Shown here piece after piece: positions 27,264 to 36,200 of a stretch of DNA of 64,000 nucleotides; within the stretch, counting starts at the first letter, position 1, and every line of letters starts with the position of its first letter. Made by a program: the position numbers and the translations under genes. Below the pieces are notes generated by a model, which worked only from the letters and a program-made list of their open reading frames with translations, was not told where the DNA came from and did no database searches. The stretch spans positions 62,001 to 126,000 of the forward strand of contig JABVCE010000031.1 in assembly GCA_014905635.1 (NCBI GenBank), read 5' to 3'. This stretch comes from Scenedesmus sp. PABB004. Its lineage: Eukaryota.

Positions 27264-30200
27264 ATGGACCCGCCGGCTGGGGAAGAGGCGCGGGGCGGGC
27301 TGATCACGCGCGGGGAGGAGGGGCAGAAGCATGTGTTCAAGGCCCCCGCGCCCAAGGCCTCCCTGCTCGGTGAGCCCACCTCCACGCCGCCTCCCGCGCA
27401 TGCACGGGCGCGGGCGCAGCCCTGGAAGGCGCTGCGGCGCCCGCGGCGGCCCCGGCGCGCCAGCGCGGCGCCGCCCGCGCCGACCGCTGCTGCTGCTGCC
27501 GCCGCCGCCGCAGGCCTGGACGTGCTGGCGCGCCAGAAGCGCGCCGAGCGCGGCGAGCCGGAAGGTGGGCGACGGCGGCGGCCGTCGCGCGGGGCGGGCG
27601 GCCCGGGCCGCGGCAGGCGCAGCTGCCGCCGCTGCTGCTGGCGAGGCAGCCCTCGCCGCACGCGCGCGGCACGCGCCGAGCGCACGCCCGCGCGCTGCCG
27701 CCGCGCCCGCAGTGCTGGCCAAGCGCCCCAAGCTCGCGTTTGAGGCGGACGAGGCGGACGACAGCGCGGCGACCGCGCTCGGCGGCGGCGGCGGCGGCGG
27801 CGGCGGCGAGCCGGGCGCGACCGCCGCCGGCGGCAGCGGCGCGATGGGCCCGCCGCAGGCGCGCCGCTTCCGGGGGCAGCGCGTCGAGACGCCGTCCCAC
27901 CCGGGCGGCGTGAGCAGCGAAGCGCGCGGCTCGCTCGAGGCGGCGCGCGCGCGGCAGCGGGAGCGCGAGCGGAGCGGGCTCTACGCGAGCACCAGCGGCG
28001 GCAGCGACCGCGACCGCGACCGCGACGGCCGCAGCGGCGGCAGCGACCGCGACCGGGAGCGCGACCGGGGCCGCAGCGGCAGCGGCAGCGACCGCGACCG
28101 CCGCGGCGACGACAGCCGGCGCAGCAGCGGCGGCTGGGAGCGCGACCGCGACCGCGGCGGCGGCGGCGGCGGCGGCGGCGGCGGCGGCTGGGAGCGCGAC
28201 CGCGACCGCGGCGGCGGCAGCGACCGGCGCGGCTATGACGAGCGGCGCGGCAGCGAGCAGCGCGAGCGCGACGGACCCCGCGGCGGCAGCAGCCTGCGCA
28301 GCAGCGCCTGGGAGGCGGCGACGCCGCTGCGCGAGCCGTCCAGCTGGGACGAGCCCACGCCCGCGCGGCCCGGCGGCGGCGCGCCCGGCGACACGCCGCT
28401 GCGCGACGCGCGCGCGCTCGCGGCGCCGTCGCCCTGGGAGGCCGCGCCCGGCAGCGGCAGCACCCGCGGCGGCGCCGGCGGCGCCGGTGCCGGCGCCGGC
28501 TGGGGCGGCGCGACGCCGGGCGCGATGCCCGCTGCGGCGCGGCCGGGCAGCAGCGTGCGCGCCGGCCCGGGCGGCTCCACCGGCGCGAGCGGCATCGGGC
28601 GCGTTCGCTTCGAGGAGCCCAGCCCCGCACTCACGCCGAGCTGGAAGTCCACCAGCTGGGCGCGCGCGGGCGCCAAGGCGGCCGGCGCCGGGGGCGGCGA
28701 GGACAGCCCCGAGCTCGGCGACGACCGCGGCGGCCCGGGCGACGGCTTCGACGAGGCGCTCAGGTGCGGCCCCGCGCTGCGGCGCGGGCTGGCGCGCGGC
28801 GCGGCGCGGCGGCGGCAGCGCGCGCCCGCCGCGCTCCACCACCCCCCCCCCTGGCCCTCACCTCAGCACTAAGCGCGCCGCCCCGCCGCCCTGCCCTGCC
28901 TCCCTCGCCGCGCCCGCGTGCGTGCAGGCGTGAGGCGGAGCTGGATGAGATTCAGCGCGAGCGCGACTGGTACGACGCGGAGGAGTTTGGCGGCGCGGGC
29001 ACGGCCGGCGGCGACGCGGCCAATCCCTTTGTCGGCGACGAGGGGCTGTTCGCCAAGCGGGAGCAGGAGATGCAGCAGCGCATGAAGCGGCGCGACGGAA
29101 CGTGCGCGCGGCGGCAGTGTGCCGCGCCGCGCCGTGGTCGGGGCCGCCGGCGCGCCCCGCGCGCGCCGCGCGCGGCCGCGCCGCGCCCAACCCCACCCGC
29201 GCGCCGCCGCGCGCCCGCGCCGCGTGCAGCACGATGGGCCTCGCGGCGAGCAAACGCGCGGGCGAGCTTGAGAAGGCGCTGAACGCGTGGGAGGACAACC
29301 GCCTGCTCACGAGCGGCGTGGTCAAGCTGCGCCAGGCGCGCGGCGCGCGCGGGGCCTGCGGCGGCGGCGGCGGCGGCGGGGGCGTGGGTGGGCATGGCTG
29401 TGTCGCCGCGCCCCCCGCCGCCGCGCCGCGCGCGCCGCCGCGCGTCCGTCACGCCCCGTCCCCCGCTCACTCACTCGCTCGCTCACTCACTCACTCGCTC
29501 ACTGGCTCACTCACTCACTCGCTCACTCGCTGGCTCGCTCACCCACTCCACTCACCGCGCAGGTGAACCTCGACTTTGACGACGCCGAGGACGACCGCGT
29601 GCTGCTGCTCGTGCACGACACCAAGCCGCCGTTCCTCAAGGGCGCCGTGCTCGGCGCGCGCGGCGGCGGCGGCGTGGTGCTGCCGCTGCGCGACCCCACG
29701 AGCGACATGGCCGTCATCGCCCGGTGCGGGGGGCGTTACGGGGAGCGTTGCGGGGGCGTTACGAGGGCGTTACATGGGGTGTTACGAGGGCGTTGAAGGG
29801 TTGGGGAGGGGGGCTGAGGGCGGTTGTGTGTGGACCGTGCGGGGCGGCGGGGCTGCGCCCGCTGCGGCTGCTGGTGCGGGGGGCTGCCGGCGGGGGGGTC
29901 GCGCGGTGTGAGCGTGCACCAGCCGCTTATGGACCGCTTCGCCGCCTCCGCAAAGCGTTCCATAAGCGGCTGGTGCGCGGTCGCCGCGCGGCGCGCCGGC
30001 GGCCGCGCCGCGTGGCGGCGCTCCGGGCGGAGCAGCAGGGGCGCCCTGGCGGCTGCGCGGGCCGCCGCGCGGGGGCGGTGCCGCGGCGCGCCGCGCTCCC
30101 ACCGCGGCGCGGCGCCCCGGCGGCGGCGGCGGCGCGCGCCCTGGGCTGCTGGCGGACACCACGTGTTGCCGGCGCAGCAACCCAGGGCGCGCGCCGCCGC

Positions 30201-33200: not shown

Positions 33201-36200
33201 TTGAGGAGGGATGTGTGTGTGGGGGGGGGGGAGGTGGTGGGCGCGGGCTCGCAGCGGGGGCGCGCGCAGGGCCTGCGGCTGGCGGCGCGGGCGGGCGGTC
33301 GACGACGACGCCATCGCTCACTGCGGCGGCCTCGTCTCGACCGCCCGCCCGCGCCCCCGACCGCTCGTCAACGCTCGCCGCCTCGACCCTCTCCCCTCTT
33401 GAACCCCGCTCCCGCCCTTTACCCCCCACACCCACACAACCCGCCCTCACCCCTCACACACCCCCAACCCCCCCCCCCCCCCCCCCACACACACACACAC
33501 GCACACGCGCGCAACAGGTCGTCGCGGCGCGCGCCGACTTTAAGCTCATCGTCACGAGCGCCACGCTCGACGCGGCCAAGTTTGCGACCTTTTTCGGCAA
33601 CGCCCCCGTCTTCCACATCCCGGGGCGGACCTTCCCCGTCGACGTGCTCTGGTCGCGCACGCCGCAGGAGGACTACGTGGAGGCCGCGGTCAAGCAGGCG
33701 CGCGGAGGGGGCGCGGCGGGGGTTAGGGGGCTTGGGGGGTTGGGTGAGGGCTGGGGGGGGGGCTTGGTGAGGGCTGCGCCCCTGGCCAGGGTTGAGCGAG
33801 GCGGGAGGGGCGCAGCGGCGGCGCTCGCGCCCCACGCGCCTCACCGACCCTGGCCGCGCCGCGCCCCGCCCCGCTCCACGCACCACCCCCCCCTTCCTGC
33901 GTGCAGGCGCTGACGATCCACCTGCGCGACCCGCCCGGGGACGTACTTATCTTCATGACCGGACAGGTGCGCGGACGCACCTGAGGCGCGGCGGATTACG
34001 TTGGTCAACCAGCGGGCGGGCGCGGTTTAGCGGGCGGCGGGGGCCCTAAACCCTGGGCCCTTCCCGTCCAGCCCCGCGGAGGGCGCCGCAGCCGCGGCCG
34101 CCCTCCTCGTTCTCGCCGGCGAGAAGGTGCCCGCCCGGCGGGGACGAGGAGGGCGGCCTGCCGCCGCCGCCTGCTGCCGCCGTCGCCGCACTGCTGCCGC
34201 CGTCTCGCCGCCGGGCAGGCAGCGGCTGTAGCTGTCCGGCGACGACATCCTGACGCGTCGTTGCTGGGCAGCTACAGCTGCTGCCTGCCCGGCGGGGACG
34301 GGGAGGGCTCCCCGCTGCCGCGCCGCCGACCCGGCCGCCCTGCCCCTCCTCGCCTCGCTTCTGCCGGGCGGGGACGAGGAGGGCGGCCCGCTGGGGTGTT
34401 GAATCCTCCTGAGACCTCCCCCCTCCCAAACACGCACACACACGGACACACCCACACACCCACACCCAAACACACCCACACCCCCACCACCCACACCCAC
34501 CCACACACACACACAAACACACACCCACACACACCACACACCCACACACCACACCACACACCCGCAGGAGGAGATCGAGGCGACCTGCTTTGCCCTGTCG
34601 GAGCGCCTCGACCAGATGCGCAGCGGCGGGCAGGAGGTGCCGCCGCTGCTCATCCTGCCCATCTACAGCCAGCTGCCCAGCGACCTGCAGGCGCGCGGCG
34701 CGGCGCGGCGCACGGCGGGCGCGGCGGGCGCGGGCGCTGCGCGTGGGGGGCGCTGGCGCGCGGCGCGGGGCGCGCGCGGGCGCGGGGCGTGGGGGCGCTG
34801 ACGCGCGGCACGGCGGCGTGCGCGCGGGGGCGCGGCGCGGCGCGGCGGGGGCGCGCCCTGCCGCCGCGCGCCCTGCCGCCCCTCTCTCTCTCTCTCTCTC
34901 TCTCTCTCTCTCTCTCTCTCTCTCTCTCTCTCTCTCTCTCTCTCTCTCTCTCTCCCTCTCTCTCTCTCTCTCTCTCCCTCTCTCTCTCTCCCTCTCTCTC
35001 TCTCTCCCTCTCTCTCTCTCTCTCTCCCTCCCTCTCCCTCTCTCTCTGCCCTCCCCCCCCCCCCCCCCCCCCAACACCCACCCACCACCCACAAACCACC
35101 CTCACACCCCCAACACACCCCCAACACACGCCCAACACACATCACCCCCGCAGGCCAAGATCTTTGACAAGGCGCCCGAGGGCAGCCGCAAGGTCATCGT
35201 GTCGACCAACATCGCGGAGACGAGCCTCACCGTGGACGGCATCTTTTATGTGATCGACACCGGCTACGTCAAGATGAAGGTCTACAACCCAAAGATGGGC
35301 ATGGACGCACTCCAGGCGCGTGTTACTGTGTTATTGTGTTGTGTTATTGCGTCATGTTATTGTGTTGCCTTTTGCGTCGGCGCGCGTCTGTTGGGGTTGC
35401 TGATTGGCCCGGCCCACGGCGCGCGCGTCTCCGGGGCGTGCGCTCGGCGCGCCCGGCGTGCTGCTGCCCCCCCCCCCTCCCCTCCCCCACACACACACGC
35501 CCGCCCCCTGCCCGCCGCCCGCAGGTCTTCCCCGAGAGCCAGGCGGCGGCCAACCAGCGCAGCGGGCGCGCGGGGCGCACCGGGCCGGGCACCGCGTACC
35601 GCCTCTTCACGGGTGCGCGGGGCGGGGTTTAGGGGCCCTGCGCTGGGCAGGGTTTTGGCGGCGGCGGCGGCGCGGGCGGCCGGCAGCGGCCGCGCTGCGG
35701 TCGCGGCTGCGGCGGGGGCTCCCTCGCGCGCCGCCGCGGCGCCTCGGGGGCGGTGGGTGCAGTTGCTCAGGTGCTGGAGCCCCTCGGCCCCTCAACCGCA
35801 CTCACCGCCCCCGAGGCGCCGCGGCGGCGGCGCTGAGCCGCCGCGCCCGCAGCCCTCTCTCCCCTTCCCCCTTCCTACCTCCCTCCCGCACCCAGCCCGC
35901 CCGCACCCTGCCCACCCGCACCCTGCCCACCCCTCCTCCTCCGCCCTTACCCCAAACCGCCGCCCCCCACACACGCCCACCACCACGCCCGCGCAGAGAC
36001 GGCGTTCAAGCACGAGCTGCTGGCCACGAGCGTGCCAGAGATCCAGCGCACCAACCTCGCCAACGTGGTGCTGCTGCTCAAGTCCCTCAACGTCGACGAC
36101 ATCACCGCGTTTGACTTCATGGACCCGCCGCCCCGCGAAAACATACTCAACTCGATGCACCAGCTCTGGGTGCGGCGGGCCGCGGTTGGCCGTCTTGCGC

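Follow-up and report, generated by a model that had tools for sequence, protein, structure and literature searches.

Why should the introns of one gene be filled with long inverted repeats when those of its neighbors hold nothing of the kind? The question is raised by a 64-kb stretch of the genome of Scenedesmus sp. PABB004 (contig JABVCE010000031.1, positions 62,001 to 126,000 of the forward strand; hereafter the window, with positions counted from its first nucleotide), in which a gene for a PRP16/DHX38-type DEAH helicase carries a total of about 16 hairpin modules in eight introns, counting two weaker palindromes (Table 1). A sequence-only reading of the same stretch had described about 13 fold-backs in seven introns and had proposed either a small-RNA cluster, with selection acting on the sense RNA, or a set of structured introns that sense the activity of their own helicase. 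Our analysis leads us to favor a plainer account, to which we would give somewhat less than an even chance, namely that the hairpins are young, locally amplified GC-rich inverted-repeat DNA modules which are tolerated because they fold upon themselves in the middle of introns.

The concentration of these structures in a single gene is the central observation. An ungapped, Watson-Crick scan for inverted repeats (loop of at most 60 nt, scoring +1/-2), evaluated against twenty dinucleotide shuffles in 500-nt blocks, recovers 12 hairpins with a score of at least 18 in the 64 kb, and all 12 are located within 29916-37325, that is, in introns of PRP16; the shuffles yield a mean of 0.15 such hairpins per window and a maximum of 1. 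At a score of at least 16, 12 of 14 hairpins lie inside the gene, the shuffles giving 1.35. Weaker inverted repeats (score 12-15) are also encountered outside the full extent of the gene, which is roughly 27300-38705, where 48 are found versus about 22 expected, roughly double the shuffles; across the window weak repeats are in mild excess, and strong ones are absent beyond PRP16.

Folding leads to the same partition. Raw minimum free energies (MFE) are uninformative in this setting, given that 110-nt windows reach about -55 kcal/mol everywhere at 80% GC, and stability was expressed as a z-score relative to shuffled sequence. When folded singly, 13 of 14 hairpins exhibit z-scores of -5.5 to -14.0, with none of 200 shuffles as stable and predicted energies of -58 to -112 kcal/mol, the weakest of the 14 being 34326-34395 (z -2.7). 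Whole-intron z-scores on the sense strand range from -3.1 to -12.2 in the eight hairpin introns and from -2.7 to +2.1 in the 12 hairpin-free introns of PRP16; 75 approximate introns of other genes have a mean of +0.22 (sd 1.44, with 2 of 75 below -3), and 15 other long non-exon gaps of the window (345-1259 nt) fall between -2.8 and +2.4. These shuffle-based scores, a check that the sequence-only reading had itself proposed and that was run here within the window, thus set the hairpin introns far below other introns and bear out the statement that nothing comparable occurs in the introns of other genes, as no strong hairpin is found outside PRP16. The fold-backs are present where they had been placed and exceed chance, but their count has grown to about 16 in eight introns; the range of 29724..35996 given for them does enclose the seven introns yet leaves out a strong hairpin, 37249-37325 in intron 22, and the fold-back of intron 14, while it exists, is gapped and weaker than the others (z -5.5), below the threshold of the ungapped scan.

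The modules measure 60-120 nt, with arms of 19-45 nt, loops of 5-35 nt and a stem G+C content of about 85%; over the 12 strong hairpins the arms contain 23 mismatches in 356 bp (6.5%). The introns that bear them are 363-766 nt long, except for intron 14 with 209 nt, whereas hairpin-free PRP16 introns measure 136-282 nt, apart from three longer ones, and the median intron in neighboring genes is around 147 nt by a crude estimate. The individual features are collected in Table 1.

Table 1. The PRP16 gene model and its hairpin-bearing introns, in window coordinates; z-scores are relative to shuffled sequence and hairpin values are given in order of position.
Feature	Position	Strand	Content	Hairpin z	Whole-intron z
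PRP16/DHX38-type DEAH helicase gene, modelled part	29234..38425	+	21 exons, 20 introns		
Intron 6 (615 nt)	29724..30338	+	hairpins 29902-29990, 30121-30205; palindrome 30058-30119	-9.6, -8.5	-4.9
Intron 10 (766 nt)	31381..32146	+	hairpins 31563-31684, 31703-31787, 31858-31937, in three tandem linker+hairpin units	-7.9, -6.5, -10.4	-11.9
Intron 12 (561 nt)	32472..33032	+	hairpins 32584-32666, 32796-32882; palindrome 32741-32790; paralogue of the intron-6 block	-8.5, -8.7	-9.9
Intron 13 (363 nt, GC-AG)	33155..33517	+	hairpin 33275-33364, capping a larger stem of GT/G (5') and C/CA (3') runs	-10.1	-7.3
Intron 14 (209 nt, GC-AG)	33698..33906	+	hairpin 33775-33862, gapped and weaker	-5.5	-3.2
Intron 15 (601 nt)	33967..34567	+	tandem paralogous hairpins 34096-34158, 34205-34298 (expanded inner palindrome), 34326-34395 (weak)	-7.8, -14.0, -2.7	-12.2
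Intron 18 (384 nt)	35613..35996	+	hairpin 35729-35829, arms 37 nt	-11.4	-9.9
Intron 22 (422 nt)	37158..37579	+	hairpin 37249-37325	-10.4	-3.1

The identity of the host gene is supported by several features. Using an intronless 1272-aa PRP16 open reading frame (ORF) from a metagenome (contig L008) as the tblastn query, colinear exon matches were obtained along 28959-38422 of the + strand, and frame-based refinement of the splice sites within the modelled part led to a stop-free spliced ORF of 812 aa that carries the DEAH-helicase core motifs, including QRSGRAGR. An N-terminal exon, 29563-29721, matches in the PDB only chains of human PRP16 (DHX38), with an E-value of 1.7e-4; colinear exons, DEAH motifs and a PRP16-specific N-terminal segment being all present, the assignment to PRP16 made earlier is supported, and the intron numbering used then (6, 10, 12, 13, 14, 15, 18) agrees with the refined gene model. 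According to a passage in a secondary source (PMC4295849), PRP16 is the homologue of Chlamydomonas Mut6. The window as a whole has a G+C content of about 80%, and a crude periodicity map shows both of its strands closely occupied by genes with short exons. One of its exons, from a diaminopimelate epimerase (DapF) gene, shows 85% identity to Scenedesmus sp. and 83% to Chlorella variabilis, Tetradesmus obliquus and Raphidocelis subcapitata, and by these exon identities the source organism is a core chlorophyte.

How did so many modules come to lie in one gene? Paralogues of the 15 hairpins searched by blastn against the window are found inside the PRP16 gene only, and no copy of any hairpin family occurs in the remaining ~52 kb, where the matches are limited to (GCC)n-like 17-22-mers; the hairpin families that had been noted before are therefore real, as blastn detects their paralogues, but restricted to this gene. 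Within it, the modules have multiplied in place. Introns 6 and 12, which are 2.7 kb apart, have in common an internal block of ~330 nt comprising three modules, whose middle part is 96% identical, the third hairpin 87% and the first clearly more diverged; in intron 10 a linker motif recurs at 31547, 31679 and 31798 (spacing 132 and 119 nt); and intron 15 consists of three tandem paralogues, the middle copy having an enlarged inner palindrome. At least five families of hairpins, all confined to 7.4 kb, cannot be aligned with one another, and homology between families is not shown by a MAFFT alignment, the mean identity of which is just 53%. The locus makes local duplications in other ways too, as indicated by the end of an exon (~20 nt) which, together with its 5' splice site (…CAACTGCCGCACG/GTGAGG, the slash marking the junction), is triplicated at 37716-37742, 37779-37806 and 37843-37872 with a spacing of ~63 nt; two of these copies lie within intron 23 and are potential alternative donors.

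Such a pattern might also be sought in transposition, on the assumption that the hairpins are copies of dispersed foldback families, or of families of the type of miniature inverted-repeat transposable elements (MITEs), that abound in other parts of the genome and have accumulated here by chance. Inverted repeats of 60-140 nt that span the whole element are indeed the usual appearance of MITEs, conserved arms around a variable interior would suit transposase-bound ends, and a faint inverted match of 10-12 nt is present at the ends of the intron 6/12 block. However, the 12 strong hairpins are not flanked by consistent target-site duplications and have neither termini nor terminal motifs in common: in 11 of them the flanking matches comprise just 2-5 nt, are of GC type, shift in offset and have no common length or motif, and the twelfth has none. 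Terminal inverted repeats are trivially present, each module being an inverted repeat. The lack of family copies in the other ~52 kb speaks against dispersal as well, at least five unalignable families within 7.4 kb would be very unlikely under random insertion, and what the introns share is a three-hairpin block with its linkers, and tandem units with linkers in common, instead of a single inverted repeat. We accordingly regard this explanation as improbable. Introner elements were rejected, since the similarity between introns 6 and 12 is confined to an internal block of ~330 nt, of which none of the other genes in the window has a copy; the modules are not introners because they lie inside older introns and do not supply splice sites.

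That the introns are older than the hairpins is suggested by the PRP16 genes of other organisms. A metagenome scan with the exon 33518-33697 retrieved 80 PRP16 loci, none of them from a close relative (best match 88% identity over 50 aa; GC content of the loci 0.29-0.71), and 76 of these 80 are without a hairpin of score at least 16. The four exceptions have one each, two being MITE-like, one short and one a telomere-like repeat. The two MITE-like cases, L021:3477-3603 and L027:3793-3933, are near-perfect inverted repeats of 127-141 nt in unrelated low-GC eukaryotes, the former between aligned exons, i.e. in an intron, the latter 3' of the last aligned exon; they count in favor of MITE insertion in so far as they show PRP16 loci carrying one such element each. 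Three intron-rich relatives were compared in addition, namely L023 (93-97% amino-acid identity in core exons), L057 (71% GC) and L013, and 26 of their 27 approximate PRP16 introns are unstructured (z -2.5 to +2.1). The sole structured intron, 7691-8058 of L013, a distant relative with 48% GC, holds a hairpin of ~120 nt that is long but imperfect (z -4.6 to -7.0). At the places that introns 6 and 13 occupy in the present gene, L023 and/or L057 have introns too, of ~200-250 nt and without structure, which indicates that the hairpins at these positions are lineage-specific additions to older introns.

Were the hairpins maintained for their RNA, the sense strand should betray it, and a count of 11 G-U wobbles against 1 C-A mismatch had been taken earlier as the mark of selection on that strand. 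This count came from five chosen stems; when all 12 strong hairpins are included, there are 11 G:T, 5 A:C and 7 other mismatches. The share of 11 in 16 corresponds to a one-sided binomial probability of about 0.1, and ~56% G:T would be expected without selection because T exceeds A on the sense strand (130 versus 102 in the hairpins, 876 versus 596 in PRP16 introns overall). When both strands of 15 modules are folded, the + strand is more stable in 6 and the - strand in 7, with 2 ties, and G:U pairs number 24 versus 17. By far the most sense-biased hairpin is 34205-34298, with -92.8 kcal/mol on the + and -75.5 kcal/mol on the - strand, the second-largest gap being 8.9 kcal/mol for 31563-31684. 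With mismatches near what composition predicts, energies split 6/7/2 and little covariation, selection on the sense RNA in general is not sustained by these data, which illustrate that at extreme GC both MFE values and hand-picked G:U counts mislead and that shuffle z-scores together with a comparison of both strands are needed.

Covariation among the paralogues was assessed by laying each copy's own structure on its paralogue, with both directions summed. Among the changed pairs, 6 are doubly compensated, 16 singly compatible, 43 broken and 27 gapped. This projection replaced consensus folding, which discards broken pairs; the perfect compensation (zero broken pairs) returned by the latter was dismissed as a bias of the method, and 7 seeming compensations in a comparison of the intron-10 with the intron-18 hairpins were set aside as an artefact, the hairpins aligned there being unrelated. 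The outer arms are instead preserved as identical sequence, whereas in the loops 44 of the 86 aligned columns differ, and since the linkers of the block are 96% identical it is the loops that are unusually fast rather than the arms that are slow, which fits the behavior that unstable palindrome centers would display. Intact stems need no long-term selection in this situation, because the arm divergence of 6.5% is of the same order as the divergence of the paralogues.

The same structures can be viewed as candidate Dicer substrates, in which case the introns of PRP16, a homologue of the Chlamydomonas silencing factor Mut6, would host polycistronic precursors of microRNA (miRNA)-like RNAs or hairpin-derived small interfering RNAs (siRNAs), with small-RNA output or cleavage of the pre-mRNA possibly coupled to helicase expression. 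The geometry is appropriate: precursors of this type are expected to be near-perfect duplexes of at least ~21 bp, the arms pair over 19-45 bp with 0-6 mismatches, and stems of this kind, in modules of 63-122 nt overall, suit the long near-perfect precursors of algae. Clustering in one host transcript with families formed by local duplication is typical of miRNA clusters, arms are kept while loops diverge, the intron-15 hairpins are biased toward the sense strand, and the organism, by its DapF exon, belongs to the core chlorophytes. In Chlamydomonas, as stated in an excerpt of Valli et al. (PMC4817775), 9 high-confidence miRNAs derive from introns and account, together with 2 from untranslated regions, for 61.1% of that class, and the processing of an intronic stem-loop does not depend on splicing.

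Other results are less accommodating to Dicer substrates, for besides the missing overall sense-strand bias and the weak covariation, an Rfam scan of 27000-39000 (by E-value) gave 11 matches, all below the gathering score, and no match to a curated miRNA family; the best of them, mir-4529, attains 45 bits against a gathering score of 88, and the models concerned are unrelated animal or viral miRNA hairpins. Small nucleolar RNAs (snoRNAs) of the H/ACA or C/D type were dropped as candidates, with one sub-threshold snoRNA match in Rfam. Nor are there specific complementary targets in the window: 938 21-mers searched with at most 2 mismatches produce 102 matches, the first 40 of which are all low-complexity GC repeats, and seven of 15 hairpins (those starting at 29902, 31858, 34096, 34205, 34326, 35729 and 37249) have no match at all. 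The one Chlamydomonas intronic miRNA host that was compared is, in an excerpt of PMC12290286, an SNF2-related gene and not MUT6. A keyword search of the open-access literature turned up no account of a hairpin cluster spread over several introns of a single green-algal gene and confined to it, and no report of a hairpin or miRNA in MUT6. On balance, Dicer substrates are a possible but doubtful explanation, and the stronger proposition that the PRP16 pre-mRNA doubles as the polycistronic host of about 16 such candidates, wired to helicase expression, appears to us improbable. If true, the former would give this gene for a silencing-linked helicase a higher density of intronic small RNAs than any host known from green algae, and the latter would amount to a self-contained feedback module without a described parallel in algae.

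The location of the hairpins within their introns bears on a further proposal, according to which they are selected cis-acting RNA structures that compact introns of otherwise excessive length, or adjust how fast or how faithfully the PRP16 pre-mRNA is spliced, perhaps with a feedback on the activity of the spliceosome. All 15 mapped hairpins lie at least 91 nt from the 5' splice site and at least 133 nt from the 3' splice site. PRP16 acts downstream of the branch site, and the hairpins are located upstream of the likely branch region, where the helicase is not expected to act; the idea that the introns sense their own helicase activity consequently finds no positional support. Compaction as such might appear attractive, considering that the hairpin introns are so much longer than the neighboring median and that in the predicted folds of five of seven hairpin introns the first 110 nt pair with the last 140 nt by 55-88 pairs, the other two having 29 and 0. 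The excess of structure, however, resides in the hairpin cores (z -7.3 to -12.4), whereas the joined intron flanks, each shuffled separately, score between +1.2 and -1.4 except in intron 13 (z -4.0), the only intron whose ends are specifically complementary; in the remaining six of seven, the ends pair no better than their composition would give. The 5' end of intron 13 carries (GT)n and G runs, which face a C19 run and (CA)n at the 3' end. Bridging structures, the 'zipper' stems, are also present in long yeast introns. Structures of this type enforce splice-site pairing in fish (AC)m-(GT)n introns, as reported in an excerpt of PMC4691745. Compaction would nevertheless account for tolerance and not for origin, and the scarcity of paralogue covariation in the projection test, along with the unstructured state of 26 of 27 PRP16 introns in the three intron-rich relatives, makes selected cis-acting structures very improbable in our judgment.

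Other peculiarities of the introns in this window concern their sequence instead of their folding. On the sense strand, 66 of the 75 approximate introns of other genes and 19 of the 20 of PRP16 are rich in G over their first half and in C over their second. Six of the 20 modelled PRP16 introns start with GC (at 29336, 31153, 33155, 33698, 34691 and 35316), in the context AG/GCGCG in all cases, and four of the six have no in-frame GT donor nearby; GC-AG introns usually make up roughly 1% in eukaryotes, a share that the ~30% predicted from the gene model would far exceed. The telomere-repeat-like octamer CCCTAAAC occurs 12 times in the window versus 0.1 times expected, seven of them in PRP16 introns (31074, 31279, 31306, 32131, 33012, 34044 and, on the - strand, 35627) and five elsewhere; several copies are 9-20 nt upstream of a 3' splice site, where the octamer may contain the branch point. 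Much of intron 16 is filled by a (CT)n microsatellite of 166 nt (34882-35047, 92% pure) that is preceded by ~165 nt of degenerate GC-rich tandem repeats, and this intron shows no excess structure (z -1.3).

The least credible explanation is that the hairpins are artefacts of assembly or sequencing, e.g. fold-back chimeras. Nothing specific speaks for it other than the difficulty of sequencing very GC-rich palindromes, and sixteen separate short modules with mismatches, distinct loops and paralogues at 87-96% identity, in introns that are otherwise normal and across which the coding frame is intact, render it scarcely conceivable.

The account that we favor, local amplification of palindromic DNA, can be put as follows. 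Copies would have arisen by replication slippage, template switching or ectopic conversion, all of which palindromes can themselves provoke, and not by transposase-driven dispersal. In the pre-mRNA each module would snap into a very stable hairpin that adds sequence but almost no end-to-end distance and, being clear of both splice sites, would leave the G-rich 5' and C-rich 3' flanks of the intron able to meet, so that the insertions could thereby be tolerated in an essential gene among neighbors with introns of ~150 nt. The modules would then be passengers whose RNA structure accounts for their tolerance, and not demonstrated RNA genes. Several observations weigh against it. The two strongest intron-15 hairpins carry 6 G:T and no A:C mismatches, and 34205-34298 is favored by 17 kcal/mol on the sense strand; this bias is a post-hoc hint, and C-to-T change on the non-template strand would explain it equally well. 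Hairpin 1 of introns 6/12 shows two neighboring pairs that are doubly compensated, and arms kept far better than loops would also be expected under selection on the arms. Above all, local amplification leaves unexplained why every one of the 12 strong hairpins, which form at least five families that cannot be aligned with one another, is confined to one gene, while ~52 kb of flanking sequence with some 20 genes and 15 long gaps holds no strong hairpin; a purely neutral process should not respect gene borders. If the modules are just local palindromes, the locus would provide a natural example of an essential, intron-rich gene that tolerates ~1.4 kb of self-folding inserted DNA and would show palindromes seeding further local duplication in a compact genome of 80% GC.

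Comparison with known systems helps to locate this case. Mobile GC-rich hairpin clusters occur in organelles, for instance the GC clusters of yeast mitochondria and the palindromic repeats of algal organelles, and resemble the PRP16 modules in being GC-rich palindromes that multiply locally and are tolerated where harmless; the organelle elements measure ~30-70 nt and are dispersed over the genome, whereas the PRP16 modules are nuclear, longer and confined to one gene. Yeast zipper introns share with the hairpin introns a self-complementarity that shortens the distance between splice signals, and so do the (AC)m-(GT)n introns of fish (Lin et al. 2016, PMC4691745), which intron 13 resembles in its GT/G runs facing C/CA runs; unlike in bridging introns, the excess structure of PRP16 lies in local mid-intron hairpins and the pairing of the ends is compositional in six of seven introns. 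MITEs, foldback transposons and introners (for the last, Gozashti et al. 2022, PMC9860276) are similarly short, non-coding intronic elements that consist almost entirely of inverted repeat, and MITEs and foldbacks also combine conserved arms with a variable interior, but the PRP16 modules differ in that they lack target-site duplications, are not dispersed over the other 52 kb and have a shared unit made of several hairpins. The intronic miRNA and hairpin-siRNA precursors of Chlamydomonas reinhardtii (excerpt of Valli et al. 2016, PMC4817775) are alike in being long near-perfect stem-loops within introns of chlorophyte coding genes, where splicing of the host intron need not be disturbed; by contrast, the PRP16 case packs about 16 hairpins into eight introns of one gene, its stems are far more stable at ~85% GC, and its hairpins are known from sequence alone, with neither a sense bias nor a match to a curated family. 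Set against these systems, the most likely explanation, locally amplified hairpin repeats, is ordinary in kind, and it is their gene-restricted, multi-intron arrangement in a silencing-linked helicase that is unusual.

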